From Woeseiaceae bacterium (GTDB taxonomy: Bacteria; Pseudomonadota; Gammaproteobacteria; Steroidobacterales; Woeseiaceae), in assembly GCA_022615525.1 (NCBI GenBank), contig JAKEGN010000159.1, positions 1-29,806 of the forward strand: a DNA stretch of 29,806 bases. Reading direction: 5' to 3'. Under the pieces are notes generated by a model. It did not search any database. It was not told the DNA's origin and was given only the letters and a program-made list of their open reading frames with translations. Both the position numbers and the translations under genes were made by a program. Shown here one piece after another: positions 2,426-29,806 of the stretch. The first letter of the stretch is position 1. Every line of letters begins with the position of its first letter.

Positions 2426-4117
2426 CTATTCTTCGCCCTTGTTCTTTTTCCTCACGCCTTTCGCCGCAAGTGCTTCCTGGTGTACCACCTTGTTGATGCG
2501 CCACTGCTGCGCGATGGACAGCAGCGTGTTGGTCACCCAGTAAAGCACCAGCCCCGATGGGAAAAACGCAAAGAAGCCGGTGAACACGACCGGCATGATC
2601 TGCATGACTTTCGCCTGCACGGGATCCGCGGGTGCCGGGTTCAATTTTTGCTGGAAGAACATCGCCGCACCCATGATCAACGGCAGAATGAAGTACGGGT
2701 CCCGGGATGACAGGTCTGTAATCCAGAGCGCGAACGGCGCCTGCCGCATCTCCACGCTTTCCAGCAGCACCCAGTAGAACGCCAGGAAGAAAGGCATCTG
2801 GATCAGGATCGGCAGGCAGCCCGCGGCCGGATTCACCTTCTCGCGTTTGTAGAGGTCCATCATGGCCTGGCTGAGTTGCTGCCGGTCGTCCTTGTAGCGG
2901 TCCTGCAGGGCTTTCATGCGCGGCTGTATCTCGCGCATCTTCGCCATCGATCGCCCGCTCGCCTCGGTCAGCTTGTAAAACGCAATCTTGATGAGGATCG
3001 TTACCAGGATGATCGCAAGTCCCCAGTTGCCGACAAAGCTGTACACCCTGGACAGCAGCCAGAACAGCGGCTGCGACAATATGGTCAGCCAGCCGTAATC
3101 CACTGTGAGCTTGAGCTGCGGGGAAATTTCTTCGAGCTGATTCTGCAGCTTTGGCCCGACAAACAGGACGGTCTGAAAAGCGTGCTCGCCGCCTGCCTCT
3201 ACCGTGATTGGCGCCGCGATCAGGCTCGATATTGCGACGTTGTCCCTGACCGAGATTCCGTACCGGTATGGCTGGTCGCGCGTTGGTGATATCGCGCTCA
3301 GGAAATGGTGTTGAATCGATGCAATCCAGCCATTAGTTGCAGTCTGCGACATGGGGCCGTCGGACATCAGGTCATCCCGGTCCAGTTTCTCGGACTTCTC
3401 GCCATTGAAAATGACCGGCCCGTCGAACGAGTACGTATCCACGTCGAACATCGAGCGCTCGATAGGGACCGAGCGGCGGCGAATCTGCGCATAATCTGCG
3501 CCGCGCCATTCCGTTTCGCTGTCATTTATCAGCGTTTGCGTGACATCGATCCGGTAGCTGCCGCGGGTGAAACGCAGCACCTTTTCGACCGTCACTCCGC
3601 TTTCGTCGCGCCAGGTGAGTGGAACAAGCAGCTCGTCCCCGTCTCCCAGCTCGAAGTGTTTTGCCGGCGCGCTAAACTTTGCGAGGTGATTCGGTTCTGC
3701 GCCGTTGCCGGACGATCGCAGGCCTGTCTGCAACAGGCCATGGTTTCCGGATTCCGGACTCAGGAGCTCGACGAGGTCGTTCGGTCGGTCCTTGTGGACG
3801 GGGTACTTGAGCAACAGCGCGCGCTGCAGCGTCCCGCCCTGCTCGCTGATTTCGATCTGCAGTACGTCCGTCCGTACCTGGATCGTCTCCGCTTGCGCCG
3901 TGTCCGCCGCTGCGGCCGGCTGAAGGGCCGGCGCTTCTCCAGGGGTTGCGGTGAGGTCCGGCAGCTCCGGACCGGTCTCTGGCGGCGATTCCGCAGCAGG
4001 CGCGGGTGATTCTGTCTGCTGGGCCGGTCGCGGCCCGTAGTCCTGCATCCACGCCTGGTAGGTAATCCAGAGCATCAGGCCGAATGCCGCCCACACCAAC
4101 AGTCGCTGGTTATCCAT
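2426..4117 (-). CDS. yidC: Membrane protein insertase YidC
   Basis: Start MDNQRLLVWAAFG (ATG 4117; the longer ORF-track start lies inside rnpA). Periplasmic domain, VDYGW, GNWGLAII, YKREKVNP-AGCLPILIQMPFF, DPYFILP, GLVLYWVTN. 563 aa. Confidence 0.97.
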   Translation of the reverse strand: MDNQRLLVWAAFGLMLWITYQAWMQDYGPRPAQQTESPAPAAESPPETGPELPDLTATPGEAPALQPAAAADTAQAETIQVRTDVLQIEISEQGGTLQRALLLKYPVHKDRPNDLVELLSPESGNHGLLQTGLRSSGNGAEPNHLAKFSAPAKHFELGDGDELLVPLTWRDESGVTVEKVLRFTRGSYRIDVTQTLINDSETEWRGADYAQIRRRSVPIERSMFDVDTYSFDGPVIFNGEKSEKLDRDDLMSDGPMSQTATNGWIASIQHHFLSAISPTRDQPYRYGISVRDNVAISSLIAAPITVEAGGEHAFQTVLFVGPKLQNQLEEISPQLKLTVDYGWLTILSQPLFWLLSRVYSFVGNWGLAIILVTILIKIAFYKLTEASGRSMAKMREIQPRMKALQDRYKDDRQQLSQAMMDLYKREKVNPAAGCLPILIQMPFFLAFYWVLLESVEMRQAPFALWITDLSSRDPYFILPLIMGAAMFFQQKLNPAPADPVQAKVMQIMPVVFTGFFAFFPSGLVLYWVTNTLLSIAQQWRINKVVHQEALAAKGVRKKNKGEE

Positions 4118-4502
4118 CGGCCCGATTGTCCTTCGTGGCGCTGCGGTTCGCGCGGCCCCTGCTCCAGTGCCGCTCCAGGCTGTCGAACAACGCCTTGTTG
4201 TCTGCCAGGTGAGTGCCACTCTGGTTCAGCACGACTATGTCCAGGCCCTCGAGCTCCGCCCGGTGACGGCGAAACGACTCCCTGACGATGCGCTTCAGGC
4301 GATTCCGCGACGATGCGAGCCGGCAGTGCTTCTTGGATATGGCCATGCCGAGCCGGGCCTCCTGGCCTGCGTTTTCTGTTGTCAGCACGGTAAACATGTT
4401 GTCGCGACTGCGGCGGGCCTTGCTGAAGACGCGCCCGAAAGACGCGGCGTCCGTCAGGCGGCTCGTTCGTTGAAACCGGTGATCGGGCCGTTCGCCCGAC
4501 AT
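4110..4502 (-). CDS. rnpA: Ribonuclease P protein component
   Basis: RF...SRL...F..VF, ARLGMAISKK, RNRLKRIVRESFR (RNR motif), LDIVV; between rpmH and yidC. ATG 4502, 130 aa. Confidence 0.95.
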   Translation of the reverse strand: MSGERPDHRFQRTSRLTDAASFGRVFSKARRSRDNMFTVLTTENAGQEARLGMAISKKHCRLASSRNRLKRIVRESFRRHRAELEGLDIVVLNQSGTHLADNKALFDSLERHWSRGRANRSATKDNRADG

Positions 4503-4543
4503 GTTATTTATTTCTGTCTGCGCCGGCGGTTGGCCACGGGCCG

Positions 4544-4678
4544 CTACGGGGTAAGCTCGGCGCGGCCTTTCGCGCGGCGCCGTTTGAGGACCAGGCGGCC
4601 GCCCTTGGTTGCCATTCTTGCGCGAAATCCGTGGGTGCGGGCCCGCTTCAATGCGCTGGGCTGGTAGGTGCGTTTCAT
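4544..4678 (-). CDS. rpmH: 50S ribosomal protein L34
   Basis: [44 protein letters not shown], 44 aa, canonical L34. Confidence 0.99.
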
Positions 4679-4733
4679 GAGCCTGATACCTGCGTCTGTG
4701 CCGGGGCTCTCCCCAGCCAAAAGAAAGCCGGCA

Positions 4734-4762
4734 AGGGTACGCGGGCACTCAATTAGTGTCAA
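4734..4762 (-). promoter_or_regulatory. sigma70 promoter for rpmH-rnpA-yidC
   Basis: Minus strand TTGACA (4762-4757), 17-nt spacer, TACCCT (4739-4734), followed by the GC-rich TGCCGGC, which resembles a stringent discriminator. Confidence 0.65.
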
Positions 4763-4907
4763 TAGAACAAACAGTTAATACATGCTCCTCGTGGCTTTTT
4801 CCGTTTGATGGCGCAAGCTGCACAGACGTATTAGACTGCCGGTCCGCCGACATTTTTGTTAGCGTCTTTATTTTTCCGCCTTTTGTTTCATGTGCCCGGG
4901 GACCTCG

Positions 4908-6230
4908 TTGCAGACCGAGACAACGCTGTGGAATGACTGTGTCCGCGAACTCCAGGCGGAGCTTCCCGAGCAGCAGTTCAATACCTGGATTCGACCGCTG
5001 CAGGCGGTCGAGGAAGGCAATGCGCTGAAACTACTGGCCCCCAATCGCTTTGTCGTCGACTGGCTGCAGCAGCATTACGTGGAAAGAATCCTGCAGCTCA
5101 TCGACCGCAGCGGTGACGCGATGGAGCTGGTCATCGAGGTGGGCTCGCGTCACGCGGCACCGCCTCCGCCGGGACCCTCGCGTGCTTTGGCAGCTGCGGT
5201 CACGCCCGTTGCGAGCCGCCTGAACCCGACCTTCACTTTCGCCAATTTTGTCGAGGGCAAAAGCAACCAGCTGGCGCGGGCCGCGGCATTCCAGGTCGGC
5301 GAAAACCCGGGAAAATCCTATAATCCCCTGTTCATTTACGGCGGCGTCGGCCTCGGCAAGACACACCTCATGCAAGCCATCGGCAACGCGATGCTTGCAC
5401 GCGATCCGTCGGCGAGGGTCAGTTACGTGCACTCCGAGCGTTTCGTCGGCGACATGGTCAAGGGGTTGCAGCACAATACCATTTCGGACTTCAAGCGCTC
5501 GTATCGGTCCCTGGATGCCCTGCTGATCGATGATATTCAGTTTTTCGCCGGCAAGGATCGTTCACAGGAAGAATTCTTTCATACGTTCAACGCCCTGCTC
5601 GAGGGACATCGACAGATCGTGCTCACCTGTGACCGATATCCAAAAGAGGTGCGCGGTCTCGAAGAGCGGCTCAAATCACGCTTTGGCTGGGGCCTTACTG
5701 TCGCAATCGAGCCACCGGAACTGGAAACTTCCGTGGCAATCCTGATGAGTAAGGCCGCGAATGAGTCCGTGGTGTTACCGGAAGAGGTTGCTTTTTTCAT
5801 TGCCAAACGTATTCGGTCGAATGTGCGGGAGCTCGAGGGCGCATTGCGCCGCGTTTCAGCGAATGCACAGTTCACCGGGAAACCGATTACAGTGGATTTT
5901 GCCAAGGAGGCGCTGCGCGACCTCCTGGCATTGCAGGAACGGCTGGTTTCCATCGAGAATATTCAGAAAACCGTCGCCGATTACTTCAAGCTCCGGGTTG
6001 CCGACCTGCTCTCCAAGAGGAGGACCCGCTCCATCGCCAGACCGCGACAGCTCGCAATGGCGCTGGCAAAGGAACTGACGAGCCACAGCTTGCCGGAAAT
6101 CGGTGACGCATTCGGCGGAAGGGATCATACGACCGTGCTGCATGGGTGCCGACGGATCGCGTCTTTACGGGAACAGGAGAAGCGGGTTGATGAGGACTAT
6201 ATGAACCTGTTAAGGACATTGACAGGATGA
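4908..6230 (+). CDS. dnaA: Chromosomal replication initiator DnaA
   Basis: [29 protein letters not shown], Walker [36 protein letters not shown]. Start probably TTG 4908 (GGGGA upstream); ATG 4890 is possible. Confidence 0.98.
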
Positions 6231-24082: not shown

Positions 24083-25240
24083 ATGAAGACCCTGACTGCT
24101 GTCCTGTTTGTACTCGGCCTGTGCCCGGCGCTGGGCTTTGCACAGGACGACAACAGCGAGATGACGAAGGTCAAGGAGCAGGAACTCGAGGAGGTTCGCG
24201 AGCGCATCAGCGACCTGAAACAGAGCATGGACCGGCGCGCTGCCGAAAGGGACCGGATTACCGGGGAATTGCAGGCGGCCGAGGTGATCATTTCCGAAAA
24301 GCGGCTGCACCTGCAGGAACTCGAAAAACAGCGCCGCTACAGCGAAAAGAAGAAGGCAGACCTCGACCAAAAGCTGAAGGCGCGGGAAGCGGAACTCGAG
24401 ACGGAAACCAGCCTGCTCGAGGACCAGGTTGTCGCTGCCTACTCCACCGGCGGCCAGGAACGGCTCAAGCTGTTGCTGAACCAGCTCGACCCTGCCGCGC
24501 TGGGCCGGCAACTCGCGTACTACCGCTACTTCAGCGAGTATCGCAGCAGGAACATCGAGGCGGTCAATACGCACATCAGCGAGCTACGGCAGCTGCGCGC
24601 ACAGGTGGCCGAAGAAGAGAATCGTCTCGCAGGTCTTACCCGGGAGCGTTTTGTCGAGCTCACAGAGCTTGGCGCGGCACAGGAAAAACGCCAGCAACTC
24701 CTGGTGAGCCTGAAGTCGCGCATTGCCGAGGAGGGCTCGGAAATCCAGCGCCTGGCGGCACAGGAACAGGACCTGTCACGCCTGATCGCCGAGCTCGGGA
24801 GCATCCTCGCGGATTACCCGATACGGTCGGAAGAGCCCTTCAGTGAGTTGAAAGGACGCCTGACCTGGCCGGTAGCGGGCGGGCTGGTGCACGATTTCGG
24901 CCAGCCGCGGGCCGGGGGCCTGAAGTGGAACGGGGTCGTACTTACGGCGCCGCGCGGCCGGGAGGTCCGGTCGGTCTACCATGGCCGGGTGGTGTTTGCC
25001 GACTGGCTGTCGGGCCTGGGACTGCTGGTCATCGTCGATCACGGCGAGGGGTTCATGACGCTGTATGGCTACAACGAGACCTTGCTGAAAGCGACTGGCG
25101 ACTGGGTCGCGCCCGGCGATGTCATTGCGACGGTTGGTGATTCGGGAGGGCAGTCGCAGTCCGGGCTGTATTTCGAAATCCGCCAGGGCACAACGCCGGT
25201 CAATCCGCGCCGCTGGATCACCCGCAATCCGCGCAGCTGA
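24083..25240 (+). CDS. envC: Murein hydrolase activator EnvC (coiled coil plus degenerate M23/LytM domain)
   Basis: Signal peptide, long coiled coil, LTWPVAG, WNGVV, ADWLSGLGLLVIVDHG, LYGYN, GDSGG...LYFEIR. Zn ligands are replaced, as in EnvC. Confidence 0.9.
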   Translation: MKTLTAVLFVLGLCPALGFAQDDNSEMTKVKEQELEEVRERISDLKQSMDRRAAERDRITGELQAAEVIISEKRLHLQELEKQRRYSEKKKADLDQKLKAREAELETETSLLEDQVVAAYSTGGQERLKLLLNQLDPAALGRQLAYYRYFSEYRSRNIEAVNTHISELRQLRAQVAEEENRLAGLTRERFVELTELGAAQEKRQQLLVSLKSRIAEEGSEIQRLAAQEQDLSRLIAELGSILADYPIRSEEPFSELKGRLTWPVAGGLVHDFGQPRAGGLKWNGVVLTAPRGREVRSVYHGRVVFADWLSGLGLLVIVDHGEGFMTLYGYNETLLKATGDWVAPGDVIATVGDSGGQSQSGLYFEIRQGTTPVNPRRWITRNPRS

Positions 25241-25257: not shown

Positions 25258-25331
25258 CTGGAACAGTGCGTTAGAGAAGCGCCGGGCCAGAAATGCCAGA
25301 ACAGCGGCCCGCGACCCCGGAGTGTATCCAC

Positions 25332-26570
25332 ATGTCCCTGAAAGCCAGAGCCGCCCTGGTCCTGACCATAGGCACCGTATTGGGCCTCGGGCTGTCCATC
25401 GGGGGCAATTATCTGAAAGACCCGGTTCAGCCCGACCCGAGGGGCCTTGACTGGGAGCAGGCGCGGCTTTTTGCCGAAGTCATCGAGCGGGTCAAACAGG
25501 ATTATGTCGAGCCGGTCGACGATGCCGAATTGCTGGAGAGCGCTATCCGGGGGATGGTGGCAAATCTCGATGCGCACTCCGAATTTCTGGACGCCGATGA
25601 ATACGAAGACATACGCATCAGCACCACAGGCAGGTATTCCGGCATCGGACTCGAAGTCAGCACGGTCGATGGCGAGATCCTGATCGTAGCGCCGATCGAC
25701 GGCACGCCGGCACACCGCGCCGGGCTCCAGGCCGGCGATGTCATCGTGGCTATCGATGGCACGACCGTGGCGAACGAAGGACTGCAGCAAACCATCGCGC
25801 GCATGCGGGGCCGCGAGGGCACGCTGGTTACCATTACCGTTTTGCGCGGCGAGGAAGACGAAGCGCACGTTTTCAGTTTGCGACGGGAGAACATACAGAC
25901 GGCAAGCGTGCGCCACGAACTGCTCGAGCCGGCTTACGGATACGTCCGCGTGAGCCAGTTCAATGACACGACTGCCGAAGAACTGAGCCGCGCGGTCGAT
26001 GATCTGCAACAAGCCGAAGACGACGCGCAAGGGATAATGCTGGCTGGACTGATACTGGACCTGCGCAACAATCCGGGCGGCGTACTCGATGCGGCCGTCG
26101 ATGTGTCAGACCTCTTCCTCGATTCGGGCGTCATCGTGTCGGCCGACGGCCGCACCCCGGAATCGCGCTTTACCCGCAACGCCCATCGCGGCGATATCCT
26201 GGATGGAGCGCCGATCGTCGTACTGGTCAACAATGGCTCGGCCTCTGCGTCGGAGATCGTCGCCGGCGCGCTGCGTGACCACCACCGGGCGCTGATCGTC
26301 GGCACCACTACGTTTGGCAAAGGTCTCGTGCAGACCGTGATGCCCTTGTCCAAAGGCCGGGCGATCAAGCTGACGACGTCGCGCTATTACACACCATCCG
26401 GCGAGTCGATCGACGCGACCGGCATCATGCCCGATGTCGTGGTGGAGGGATCGGAACACTACCCGGAGCCGAGCCTGCAGGTCGAAGTCGATCGCGAAGG
26501 TGATGCACAGCTGATCGAAGCGATCGAACGCCTGCGCCGCCATCGGATTCTCCAGTCCAGCGCAGAGTAG
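25332..26570 (+). CDS. ctpA: Carboxy-terminal processing protease, S41 family (PDZ plus S41)
   Basis: LDAHSEFL, YSGIGLEV, PIDGTPAHRAG, DLRNNPGG, SASASEIVAGAL, FGKG, TTSRYYTPSG, GIMPDV. ATG 25332 with GGAG SD. Confidence 0.93.
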   Translation: MSLKARAALVLTIGTVLGLGLSIGGNYLKDPVQPDPRGLDWEQARLFAEVIERVKQDYVEPVDDAELLESAIRGMVANLDAHSEFLDADEYEDIRISTTGRYSGIGLEVSTVDGEILIVAPIDGTPAHRAGLQAGDVIVAIDGTTVANEGLQQTIARMRGREGTLVTITVLRGEEDEAHVFSLRRENIQTASVRHELLEPAYGYVRVSQFNDTTAEELSRAVDDLQQAEDDAQGIMLAGLILDLRNNPGGVLDAAVDVSDLFLDSGVIVSADGRTPESRFTRNAHRGDILDGAPIVVLVNNGSASASEIVAGALRDHHRALIVGTTTFGKGLVQTVMPLSKGRAIKLTTSRYYTPSGESIDATGIMPDVVVEGSEHYPEPSLQVEVDREGDAQLIEAIERLRRHRILQSSAE

Positions 26571-26586
26571 GCCGCGGGCGCCGCGT

Positions 26587-27399
26587 TTGATTTCTGTGCG
26601 GGCAGCAAAATGGGTGATCCCTGCAGTCGCGGGGTTAATGCTCAGTGCAATGGTCGATGCCGAACCGGTTCCACGCATCGCGATTATCATCGACGATCTC
26701 GGGTACGAACTCGAAGCGGGCCGAAGGGCGGTGAATCTTCCCGGACCGATCGCCTGCGCCGTATTGCCCTCGACGCCACGCGCCCGTGAGCTCGCGCGTG
26801 CCGCACAGATGGCAGGCAAGGAGGTATTGCTGCACTTGCCGATGCAGTCCGCCATTGACGATGCGGATCAGGAGCCCGGGATGATTCGCCTGGATACCAC
26901 ACGAGAGCAGTTCGCCAGGAGTTTTGACGAGAGTTTCGAATCCGTTCCGTTCGCCATCGGCGTAAACAGTCATCGCGGCAGCCTGCTGACGCAACATCCC
27001 GGCCACATGGAATGGCTGATGGAAGAGATCACCGCACGTGGTGACCTGGTGTTCGTCGACAGTTACACGACACACCGGAGCGTAGCGTTGCAACTGGCCC
27101 GAGAGAACGGCATACCATCGGTGCGGCGCGACGTGTTTCTCGACGCCGATCGCGATGACGAATCGATCGCACGGGAGTTCGATCGGCTGAAGCAGCTCGC
27201 GAGGTCGCGTGGTCTTGCAATCGCCATCGGGCATCCCCATCCGGAAACACTGGCATTTCTCGAACGCGAGTTACCCGGACTCGCGGAGCAGGGATACGAG
27301 CTGGTCGGAATCAGGGAGTATGTTTCGCTGAAATATCGGGCGGGAAATACGGATGCGCTACCGCCGGCGGTCAGCGCTGCGGCGGCAACAGCCGATTGA
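26587..27399 (+). CDS. Divergent polysaccharide deacetylase family protein (YibQ type)
   Basis: IAIIIDDLG, EVLLHLPM, GVNSHRGS, FVDSYT, RDVFLD, AIAIGHP; typical position after envC-ctpA. TTG start. Confidence 0.92.
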   Translation: MISVRAAKWVIPAVAGLMLSAMVDAEPVPRIAIIIDDLGYELEAGRRAVNLPGPIACAVLPSTPRARELARAAQMAGKEVLLHLPMQSAIDDADQEPGMIRLDTTREQFARSFDESFESVPFAIGVNSHRGSLLTQHPGHMEWLMEEITARGDLVFVDSYTTHRSVALQLARENGIPSVRRDVFLDADRDDESIAREFDRLKQLARSRGLAIAIGHPHPETLAFLERELPGLAEQGYELVGIREYVSLKYRAGNTDALPPAVSAAAATAD

Positions 27400-27452
27400 A
27401 CCCGAGGGTGCAAATTCGATCAAACGGTCCGTTTTCCGGGAAGAGTGTGCAG

Positions 27453-28559
27453 ATGACCAGGTACTCCGTCGTTTCTTGCCTGACAGGCGCTTTGGCATGC
27501 GTCTTCGGCATCCTTGGCTGCGGCTTCGTGGCACTCGCGGCGGCGCAGGAGCAGGAGCAGCACCAGGAACAGCACCCGGAGTCGGGTGAGGTCGCCTGCA
27601 CCATGCAATACGACCCGGTCTGCGGCGTGGACGGGAAGACCTACAGCAACGATTGCGTAGCGGGTGCCGCCGGTGTCGAAATTGCCGCAACGGGATCCTG
27701 TGCCGAGCCACCTTCAGGATCCGCTTGCGACGGCGAGTCGGATCCGGTCTGCGGCGAAGATGGCAAGACCTACGGGAATGCGTGTTTCGCGGCGGAGGCA
27801 GGCGTCGAAATAGCGTTCTACGGGCTTTGCCCCGACGCCGCGGCCTGCACCGAGGACTATGCACCGGTCTGCGGATCCGATGGCAACACCTACAGCAACG
27901 CCTGTTTCGCCACGGCTGCGCAGGTCGATATTGTTGGCGACGGAATTTGCGAGGCAGCGAAGGTGACCTGCTCGGACGACTTCGAGCCGGTCTGCGGTGT
28001 TGACGGAAACACTTACGAAAACGTTTGTATCGCCCAGCAGGCCGGGGCAGAGATAGCGAGTCTCGGCGCCTGTGCCGGTTCCGAATGTCCCGCCGTGTAT
28101 GAGCCGGTCTGCGGTGTGAATGCCCAGACCTACAGGAATCGTTGCGAAGCACAGCTCGCGCGCATGGCCGTGCAACGTCGCGGCGTATGCGATGTAAGCA
28201 ACTGTCCGGAAGTCATCGTGCCGGTGTGTGCGCCCGACGGCCAGTCTTACGACAATGCCTGCAAGGCCCAGGCGGCGGGGTTCGAGACCGTTACCGAGGG
28301 CGCATGCAACCTGCGGGCATGTCCGAAGGTGTTTGTGCCGGTTTGCGGCGCGGACGACAAGACCTATGGGAATGCCTGCCTCGCCGAAAGATCCGGAGCG
28401 CGTATCCTGCACGCCGGTCTGTGCGAGGCCCAGGGACGCAACTGCCCGCGCGACTATCGGCCGGTTTGCGGTCTCGACGGTGTTACCTACGAGAACGAGT
28501 GCCATCTTGAAAATGCGGGCGAGACGATGGCTTACGCCGGGGCGTGCCTGGGCCAGTAG
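27453..28559 (+). CDS. Secreted protein with eight tandem Kazal-type serine-protease-inhibitor domains
   Basis: Signal peptide ending LAAA-Q, then 8 repeats of C-x7-C-x10-C-x14-C with PVCG.DG.TY.N.C cores. Start is ATG 27453, or TTG 27396 overlapping the upstream stop. Confidence 0.9.
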   Translation: MTRYSVVSCLTGALACVFGILGCGFVALAAAQEQEQHQEQHPESGEVACTMQYDPVCGVDGKTYSNDCVAGAAGVEIAATGSCAEPPSGSACDGESDPVCGEDGKTYGNACFAAEAGVEIAFYGLCPDAAACTEDYAPVCGSDGNTYSNACFATAAQVDIVGDGICEAAKVTCSDDFEPVCGVDGNTYENVCIAQQAGAEIASLGACAGSECPAVYEPVCGVNAQTYRNRCEAQLARMAVQRRGVCDVSNCPEVIVPVCAPDGQSYDNACKAQAAGFETVTEGACNLRACPKVFVPVCGADDKTYGNACLAERSGARILHAGLCEAQGRNCPRDYRPVCGLDGVTYENECHLENAGETMAYAGACLGQ

Positions 28560-28600
28560 CCACTGGCGAGCACCGCAGGCAGATCGTTCAGGCTACAGCG

Positions 28601-29806
28601 TCACGCGGACCAGGCGGGCGTGAGGCGACCGGTGGTGTCGCGACTATAGGGCAGCCATGCCAGACCGACGAGCTCGATGTGTATGTCCGTCGTCTTTGGT
28701 TTCACCAGCACTTCCTCGAGCTCCTCGGCTTGCGCATCGAAGGCAGTCTCCAGCGCGTCGATTTCGCGTTCCAGTTCTGCGTTCAGTGCTTCAAGATCTG
28801 AACGAACCTTCTGGGCGGTTTCCTTTGCCCGCGCAACGTCGCTCGCTTCTTTCTGTGCGCTTCCTGCGCTGCGAATCGTGGTTCCAACCCGGCTCGCTGT
28901 CGAGCTCGTGAGACGTTTGCGCCCCAGTAAGGCGCCAAGTATGGCCGTCCCCAGCGACACCGCCGTATCCAGTTTCTTTTTCGTCGACTGCTGCTGTTCA
29001 CGCTGGATTGCCTGCTCTGAACGCAGCAGCCGATTTTCCAGCACGAGTGCTTTGCTGCCATAACGTTTTCGCAGTTTGTCTACGGCATCGTCGCGCTTTT
29101 CATTGGCGAGTTGTTGCAGGCGTACGCGAAACTGTCCCTCGGTTTCGCCGGACCCCGATGTCATCCGGTACTTGCTGCTGCTATACAAACGGACGGACTG
29201 TGTTTTGCGCAGCCACTGCATCAGCAACTTCTCCCAGTCACGGTAGTTCTTTTCGCTTGCGGCGGCCGACGGGAACTCTGCGAATCCTGCACCAGGCAGG
29301 GGCGCATCGAGAAGTCCGTCTTTCGCCAGTGGCAATATCTCGGAGCTGTCCCAGTCGACCGGCAACGGACCGTCTCCGATTTCGGCCGTAACAAGCACCG
29401 GCCGGCGTTCATCGACATTCAGGCGACTATCGCTCAAAGCGATCTCCGCGGCGGCAATCACGCGCGGGTAGTAAACCAGGTTGCCGCCCTTGGCAGGCAG
29501 GTAGACCTGGTGAATTCCCGGTGCGAGGACCGGCGCATCGCCGGCGCTTTCCTGAGCGGATTGCTGCGCGCTTGTCCTCGCGACGGGCGGAGGGGGTGCC
29601 GGGGCCGCGCTTTGCCGCTTCGCCGCCGAACACAACGCGGAAATCTGCTCGCGGGTCAGCGGGCCGGCGAGGTAGGACATGGCCCAGCGCGTATTGAAAA
29701 CCACGGGCGCGTCTTCGTGGACGTTGTGCAGCAGAAACCTTCTCTTGCCGAGTCCTGCGAGCGTCTTCTCCATTTTCTGCCGGTCGAACGATTCGCTGCG
29801 CACGCC
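28601..29806 (-). CDS. C-terminal part of a probable HerA/DUF87-like ATP-binding protein (5' end outside the window)
   Basis: Frame is open to the window edge. FLLHNVHEDAPVVFNTRWAMSYLAGPLTREQI resembles the end of the ATPase region of a widespread uncharacterised HerA-like family, from recall only; followed by an Ala/Pro linker and coiled coils. Walker motifs are not in the window. Confidence 0.55.
   Translation of the reverse strand, partial: GVRSESFDRQKMEKTLAGLGKRRFLLHNVHEDAPVVFNTRWAMSYLAGPLTREQISALCSAAKRQSAAPAPPPPVARTSAQQSAQESAGDAPVLAPGIHQVYLPAKGGNLVYYPRVIAAAEIALSDSRLNVDERRPVLVTAEIGDGPLPVDWDSSEILPLAKDGLLDAPLPGAGFAEFPSAAASEKNYRDWEKLLMQWLRKTQSVRLYSSSKYRMTSGSGETEGQFRVRLQQLANEKRDDAVDKLRKRYGSKALVLENRLLRSEQAIQREQQQSTKKKLDTAVSLGTAILGALLGRKRLTSSTASRVGTTIRSAGSAQKEASDVARAKETAQKVRSDLEALNAELEREIDALETAFDAQAEELEEVLVKPKTTDIHIELVGLAWLPYSRDTTGRLTPAWSA

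Follow-up and report, generated by a model that had tools for sequence, protein, structure and literature searches.

An eight-domain array of four-cysteine Kazal domains conserved in Woeseiaceae, a probable multi-headed inhibitor of serine proteases

Layout of the Kazal gene and its product

The window, that is the whole stretch of DNA that was analyzed, is one entire contig of 29.8 kb (29,806 nucleotides) from a 2.4-Mb, 68%-complete MAG of Woeseiaceae. It carries mnmE, yidC, dnaA, dnaN, recF, gyrB, glyS, glnA, ntrC and pyrD, then envC, ctpA and yibQ, in agreement with an earlier note on this DNA which placed the Kazal array in an origin-proximal housekeeping block. The gene after yibQ (27453-28559, forward strand) has a predicted product of 368 aa which consists, from the N- to the C-terminus, of a leader of about 31 residues, a 17-residue linker and eight Kazal domains. 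The frame 27396-28559 was found open throughout in the ORF list, and the longest ORF call for the gene begins with a TTG at 27396, overlapping the stop codon of yibQ. Translation likely starts at the ATG at 27453, with the sequence GGAAGAG about 7 nt upstream. The following features were assigned, all on the forward (+) strand, with the basis given in brackets.

24083-25240, +, EnvC-like M23 activator (NCBIfam/Pfam)
25293-26570, +, S41 C-terminal processing protease CtpA/Prc (NCBIfam/Pfam)
26587-27399, +, YibQ-type divergent polysaccharide deacetylase, PF04748 (Pfam)
27453-28559, +, coding sequence of the predicted exported eight-domain Kazal protein, stop codon included (ORF translation, Pfam Kazal_1, full-length ortholog alignment)
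27453-27545, +, Sec-type signal peptide of about 31 residues (by inspection)
27546-27596, +, flexible linker rich in Gln, Glu and His, preceding domain 1 (sequence, low pLDDT)
27597-27701, +, Kazal domain 1, P1 Met (pattern, gap-free GmSPI-2 alignment with E 1.6e-9)
27726-27830, +, Kazal domain 2, P1 Gly, present in seven- to eight-domain forms only (pattern, ortholog comparison)
27846-27950, +, Kazal domain 3, P1 Glu, present in a subset of orthologs only (pattern, ortholog comparison)
27969-28073, +, Kazal domain 4, P1 Asp (pattern, ortholog comparison)
28086-28190, +, Kazal domain 5, P1 Ala, with the highly conserved scaffold TYRNRCEA ... VQRRG (pattern, ortholog alignment)
28203-28307, +, Kazal domain 6, P1 Glu (pattern, ortholog comparison)
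28320-28424, +, Kazal domain 7, P1 Lys, with Lys or Arg in 18 of 36 orthologous domains (pattern, ortholog comparison)
28443-28547, +, Kazal domain 8, P1 Arg, with Arg in 21 of 34 orthologous domains (pattern, ortholog comparison)

When searched with C.{7}C.{10}C.{14}C, the translated frame gave exactly eight matches, none of them overlapping. The number of domains, their spacing and all eight starts listed above were reproduced by this pattern search as the earlier note had given them, and so was the end of the array at 28547, where the last Cys codon ends. Measured from Cys to Cys, the linkers between the domains are 8, 5, 6, 4, 4, 4 and 6 residues long and lie within the range of 4-8 residues claimed before. 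The eight domains hold 32 Cys residues, as previously counted, and three more are located in the N-terminal hydrophobic segment.

By inspection, the leader has a short basic N-end and a long hydrophobic core followed by Ala-Ala-Ala and then Gln. A comparable hydrophobic leader with an A-x-A end before Q, E or D was found by inspection in all 34 orthologs, which agrees with the Sec-type signal peptide proposed earlier. The Cys residues in the leader raised the question of a lipoprotein, a reading that was rejected because the orthologs share no conserved L-[AS]-[GA]-C lipobox. The earlier note expected folding by the Dsb system, and DsbB is encoded in the genome. The linker preceding domain 1 differs among orthologs in both length and sequence.

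We also considered that the gene could derive from contamination or a eukaryotic fragment. This was rejected, since the contig carries dnaA, dnaN, recF and gyrB, has an even GC content of about 0.62, and the position of the gene is conserved in nine genomes of the family. The best public relative, from a Woeseiaceae bacterium, has a protein identity of 94%.

Family membership, predicted fold and residue pattern of the domains

Both Pfam models named for a scan in the earlier note matched the product, each along eight stretches: Kazal_1 with an E-value of 8.9e-65 (215 bits against a cut-off of 21) and Kazal_2 with an E-value of 8.1e-50 (167 bits against a cut-off of 22.8). Each single domain also exceeded the cut-off in a profile search of the genome. 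At the level of sequence profiles a chance origin of the Kazal match is excluded. None of the NCBIfam models matched the Kazal protein.

The core C-x7-C-x6-Y-x3-C, with Asn at P15' and Cys at P3, is present in all eight domains of the window. The classical framework of six Cys residues with disulfides I-V, II-IV and III-VI was not found, since all eight domains contain only Cys II, III, IV and VI. Alignment to the turkey ovomucoid third domain identified the first Cys of each unit as the P3 residue, Cys II, and no Cys was found two to three residues after Cys IV. The earlier assignment of the retained Cys residues, with loss of the I-V pair, was confirmed by this alignment. The missing I-V pair defines a subtype rather than an exclusion from the Kazal family, because GmSPI-2, an accepted member, is similarly reduced.

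GmSPI-2, the silk proteinase inhibitor 2 of Galleria mellonella (PDB 4hgu/2m5x, MEROPS I1), likewise has the spacing C-x7-C-x10-C-x14-C without Cys I and V. The domains of the window share with it the four Cys residues, this spacing and a domain length of about 36 residues, and the Cys residues of domain 1 are in register with those of 2m5x/4hgu. The alignment of GmSPI-2 with domain 1 is gap-free over 36 residues, with about 55% identity as judged by eye. GmSPI-2, which has two disulfides, has been reported to inhibit both subtilisin and proteinase K with high activity (PMC4169406). It is a single insect domain of 36 residues with Thr at P1, whereas the Woeseiaceae protein has eight fused bacterial domains with varied P1 residues and a predicted inhibitory activity. 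As GmSPI-2 with the same 7/10/14 spacing has been solved and reported active (PMC4169406), the four-Cys type is not new, contrary to what the earlier note left room for.

A second close relative is CrSPI-1 from the horseshoe crab (PDB 3qtl, 3pis), a non-classical Kazal protein that also has compact domains and a short linker, and it gave a sequence match with an E-value of 9.7e-12. Domain 1 of CrSPI-1 has two disulfides (PMC4169406), and the protein was solved in complex with subtilisin (3qtl; PMC3082530). CrSPI-1 differs from the Woeseiaceae protein in having two domains and not eight, in being an animal immune protein and in a slightly different C-terminal spacing. LDTI (leech tryptase inhibitor), rhodniin and ovomucoid third domains are further close solved relatives of domain 1. 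Ovomucoid (3 domains), LEKTI (15 domains) and the oomycete proteins EPI1 and EPI10 resemble the array in carrying tandem heads with differing P1 residues on one secreted chain. Classical eukaryotic Kazal proteins have six Cys residues per domain, whereas the Woeseiaceae array has four and its linkers are far shorter (4-8 residues). A Kazal domain with two disulfides can be a stable subtilisin inhibitor, as found for EPI1a (PMC1236909); the atypical domains of LEKTI and EPI1a lack Cys III and VI, whereas the Woeseiaceae type lacks Cys I and V.

A full-length AlphaFold2 model was built from an alignment of the 34 orthologs. Its mean pLDDT was 84.6, and means over blocks of 10 residues within the domains were mostly 85-96, with three dips to 76-78. 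Every domain was predicted to form a hairpin, a short helix and a final strand, as in the Kazal fold. Residues 1-5 and 28-45 had pLDDT values below 50, with a helix at residues 10-20. The pTM was merely 0.46, as expected for a beads-on-a-string layout. The AlphaFold check proposed earlier thus yielded eight Kazal folds predicted with confidence. A Foldseek search against the PDB returned only Kazal or follistatin-type entries, among them 4hgu (GmSPI-2; TMt 0.83, rmsd 1.3 A), 1an1_I (LDTI; TMt 0.87) and 3pis (CrSPI-1 domain 1; rmsd 0.4 A over 31 columns). Pfam, the alignments, the predicted fold and Foldseek agree that these are genuine Kazal domains, as first read from the DNA.

Inhibitory Kazal domains conserve the P3 Cys and P15' Asn while the other ten contact residues are hypervariable (PMC1236909). 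We compared 34 distinct Woeseiaceae orthologs, which together hold 234 domains with the strict pattern C-x7-C-x10-C-x14-C. Asn was found at P15' in 231 of the 234 domains, the Tyr/Phe position was conserved in all of them, and P2 was Pro or Thr in 203. Ranked by variability among the 35 positions, P1' was second and P1 fourth. Within the domain, the mean was 1.60 bits at the seven variable contact positions and 1.05 bits at the remaining non-Cys positions (permutation p 0.03). Judged from these alignments, the residue pattern of the Woeseiaceae domains is that known from Kazal inhibitors.

The P1 class was found to be partly bound to domain position, being acidic in domains 3-4 and basic in domains 7-8. 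P1 was Asp or Glu in 84 of the 234 domains (36%), which is unusual. Of the 38 domains grouping with domain 1, 22 have exactly its loop, CTMQYDPVCG with Met at P1, and this conservation hints at a conserved target.

Not all Kazal-like modules inhibit proteases; those of follistatin, agrin and SPARC do not. By analogy, the array could be a rigid, protease-resistant and disulfide-stapled scaffold for binding or adhesion. The strong matches to follistatin and agrin point this way, follistatin chains leading the whole-chain Foldseek ranking by E-value, as do the many acidic or Gly residues at P1 and the short linkers, which suggest a compact rod. The additional EGF-like or follistatin N-subdomain is absent here, however, and the best matches of single domains are the true inhibitors GmSPI-2, LDTI and CrSPI-1. 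The loop-holding P15' Asn, P3 Cys and P2 Thr/Pro are also nearly invariant, while the contact positions vary as in inhibitors. We therefore regard a non-inhibitory scaffold as quite improbable.

Conservation, distribution and gene neighborhood

The orthologs align over their full length with 48-96% identity. The number of domains per ortholog was 6-8, with 5-8 of them fitting the strict pattern; in the two orthologs with five strict domains the sixth has C-x9-C in place of C-x10-C. In a small-genome lineage (L028:7262-8065 of G008, a family genome of 1.8 Mb), the spacing from Cys III to Cys IV is C-x9-C rather than C-x10-C in one domain. The order of domains is colinear across orthologs. Domains 1, 5, 7 and 8 were found in nearly every ortholog and domain 6 in most, and changes in copy number fall between domains 1 and 5.

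Sixty relatives were searched for the array. All 36 other Woeseiaceae genomes carried it, with 5-11 matches each and nearly always in one gene. Among the 24 genomes searched from the remaining families of the order, just one had Kazal matches, in the form of a three-domain protein encoded elsewhere in the genome. An even sample of 300 Gammaproteobacteria contained 11 genomes with any match, and those outside Woeseiaceae were single weak domains. No Kazal match was found in 14 control genomes. Within Gammaproteobacteria the Kazal array is, by these searches, a signature of the family Woeseiaceae.

A wider protein search resulted in 1792 matches at E <= 0.001 among 8000 candidates scored. Most of the best 120 of these matches have four-Cys domains, and many have 6-8 such domains. 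NCBI records label entries from Woeseiaceae, Myxococcota, Polyangiaceae and Sorangium as 'Kazal-type serine protease inhibitor domain-containing protein'. Judged from these sequences, arrays of several Kazal domains are common both in Myxococcota and in metagenomes, and Woeseiaceae are not the only prokaryotes to have them. The other prokaryotic arrays also have 6-8 four-Cys domains, but they have longer linkers, with proteins of 500-640 aa for 6-8 domains, and other gene neighborhoods; the position after envC-ctpA-yibQ was found only in Woeseiaceae within the sample searched.

The earlier note held that an eight-domain array stands out in its surroundings and left its novelty to an architecture search. 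Instead, the gene is a conserved one in its family, and bacterial arrays of 6-8 domains are numerous. Because the architecture is common and the relatives are already annotated, the suggestion of novelty largely falls. The functions proposed in the note are still reasonable as candidates. The domain type, the fold and the probable mechanism are of a textbook kind, and public records already carry the annotation.

Two of the metagenomic proteins, with 7-8 domains, have ordinary bacterial gene surroundings. Two multi-Kazal genes (L110:2055-3743 and 3814-5466; 562 and 550 aa) lie side by side on an unrelated bacterial contig from a metagenome and adjoin a gene for a leucine-rich-repeat protein, and on another contig a 594-aa seven-domain Kazal gene follows an ECF sigma factor pair, near an M4 peptidase/adhesin. 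Larger proteins of Patescibacteria/CPR bacteria and of DPANN archaea (Woesearchaeota, Aenigmatarchaeota and Micrarchaeota) were seen to contain one or two Kazal domains, in many cases of the four-Cys type, and so were those of predatory Bacteriovoracia and Myxococcota (loci L049-L102). The wider distribution leans to episymbionts and predators.

In tblastn synteny searches the order envC-ctpA-yibQ-Kazal, on one strand, recurred in nine family genomes. The Kazal gene follows yibQ directly in five of the nine loci, and in three loci 2-4 kb are inserted before it. The small-genome lineage has no match to yibQ at this place, and there the Kazal gene comes immediately after ctpA. YibQ itself was matched by no NCBIfam model. 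The distance from yibQ to the start of the Kazal gene in the window is 53 nt. No match to a sigma-70-like promoter was found between the two genes, and a promoter and terminator scan near the Kazal gene gave nothing above the expectation from shuffled sequence. Co-transcription of the Kazal gene with envC-ctpA-yibQ is plausible from this arrangement. In a metagenomic gene call of 501 aa (P0005), Kazal domains share a single product with a PF04748 domain of the YibQ type; either the two are truly fused in some relatives or the start was called wrongly.

On its other side the Kazal gene faces a convergent gene of more than 400 aa (28601-29806, reverse strand) that runs off the contig end. It had no Pfam or NCBIfam match. 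Its relatives, 49-57% identical, adjoin the Kazal gene in seven family genomes, and charged, coiled-coil-like sequence is abundant in it.

From its position the Kazal protein could be a dedicated regulator of envelope proteolysis, binding or buffering CtpA or another endogenous periplasmic protease (HtrA-type) and tuning cell-wall remodeling together with EnvC and YibQ. Such a role would fit with the gene order kept on one strand throughout the family, the short gap to yibQ without a promoter-like match, the joining of PF04748 and Kazal domains in P0005, and the almost invariant loop of domain 1, whose target might be endogenous. Gene order within one family is largely inherited, so that synteny is weak evidence of a functional link, and the three-domain homolog outside Woeseiaceae (L029) is not near envC, ctpA or yibQ. 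To our knowledge no Kazal inhibitor acts on S41 Ser-Lys dyad proteases, which counts against CtpA as the partner. We consider this regulator unlikely.

Proposed function and candidate targets

The protein is most likely a periplasmic or secreted multi-headed canonical inhibitor of S8/S1 serine proteases, to which we assign a probability of roughly three in four. The exported protein would form disulfide-rich beads on a string, made of eight compact two-disulfide Kazal domains that each act as a canonical (standard-mechanism) serine protease inhibitor. The exposed loop just past the first Cys (P3 Cys, P2 Thr/Pro, variable P1) would occupy the active site of the protease like a substrate, with the conserved P15' Asn and two disulfides, II-IV and III-VI, holding it rigid. 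That the closest solved relatives, GmSPI-2 and CrSPI-1, are active inhibitors counts in favor of inhibition.

The P1 residues of the eight heads (Met, Gly, Glu, Asp, Ala, Glu, Lys and Arg) would give a mixed inhibitory range. Domain 1 would be suited to subtilisin- or chymotrypsin-like enzymes and domains 7-8 to trypsin-like enzymes, while the acidic heads may target enzymes that tolerate Glu or Asp, or bind weakly. Asp and Glu are poor P1 residues for most S1 and S8 enzymes, as known from ovomucoid P1 variants. With 36% of the P1 residues acidic, some heads may be weak or inactive. The linkers of 4-8 residues may also keep all heads from binding proteases at once.

After Sec export and Dsb folding the protein would by default reside in the periplasm, since it has a Sec signal without a lipobox in a diderm; further export may occur. 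There it would probably shield envelope proteins from serine proteases, be they S8/S1 enzymes that the cell itself secretes, while in transit, or foreign ones in a protease-rich sediment. The periplasmic ecotin of Gram-negative bacteria (MEROPS I11) would by analogy match the default location of the array. Ecotin differs in having an unrelated fold without homology, and it is a dimer with one adaptable loop pair as opposed to eight separate heads.

The MAG itself encodes possible endogenous targets, with at least three loci for S8 enzymes and at least two for trypsin-fold proteins. Three S8 genes were also found in a complete genome of the family. Woeseiales have been described as proteolytic, with S1 and S8 peptidases, and Woeseiaceae as cosmopolitan and abundant protein degraders in marine sediments (PMC7082342). 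The same survey of Woeseiales peptidases explicitly did not report inhibitor matches (PMC7082342).

A complex was predicted between domain 1 and an S8 subtilase of 421 aa from the same genome, which bears a signal peptide and was represented by its catalytic domain. The complex scored 0.60 (median of three) compared to 0.18 for the best control; only 5 of 78 solved complexes had scores of 0.60 or less, as did all 4 mismatched pairs (of 180) that passed. The mark set for this score was reached by 51 of the same 78 solved complexes and by 2 of 108 mismatched pairs. On the inhibitor side the predicted interface comprises residues 45-55 (P7 to P4', including the P1 residue Met51) and residues 62-69 (P11' to P18', including P14', P15' and P18'), and on the protease side Asp169, His200 and Ser355. 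The predicted interface is that of canonical docking, and the complex prediction lends weak support to inhibition. As solved Kazal-subtilisin complexes exist, the score may reflect memory or likeness.

Taken one step further, the gene could be a core envelope-operon gene co-transcribed with envC-ctpA-yibQ, its product a periplasmic, multi-specific shield or regulator by which a strongly proteolytic cell would survive the serine proteases that it and its neighbors secrete. The invariant domain 1 would then act on a conserved endogenous subtilase and the variable heads on foreign enzymes. We hold this extended proposal to be speculative and on balance doubtful. If true, it would be the first functional role given to a bacterial Kazal inhibitor.

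Protease inhibitors are poorly understood in bacteria. In the literature searched we found no paper on a tested or otherwise characterized Kazal-family member from a prokaryote, and in this respect the earlier statement that bacterial Kazal proteins are poorly characterized stands. No literature linking Kazal with Woeseia was found, nor any mention of Kazal in the Woeseiales and Woeseiaceae papers examined. The importance of the array rests mainly on its family-wide conservation in a dominant proteolytic sediment lineage and on its position beside envelope-remodeling genes. A conserved multi-headed inhibitor at this position could help explain how these cells handle self-inflicted and environmental proteolysis, and the array would offer compact, disulfide-stapled inhibitor modules with varied specificities.

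None of the matching sequencing runs listed that hold the Kazal gene was an RNA run. The DNA runs that hold it were sediment and soil metagenomes. For the stretch 26400-28700 of the window, 83% of the sampled words were found in one sediment metagenome and 10-21% in many runs labeled as soil or wetland metagenomes, which suggests that close relatives of this Woeseiaceae lineage also live outside marine sediment.
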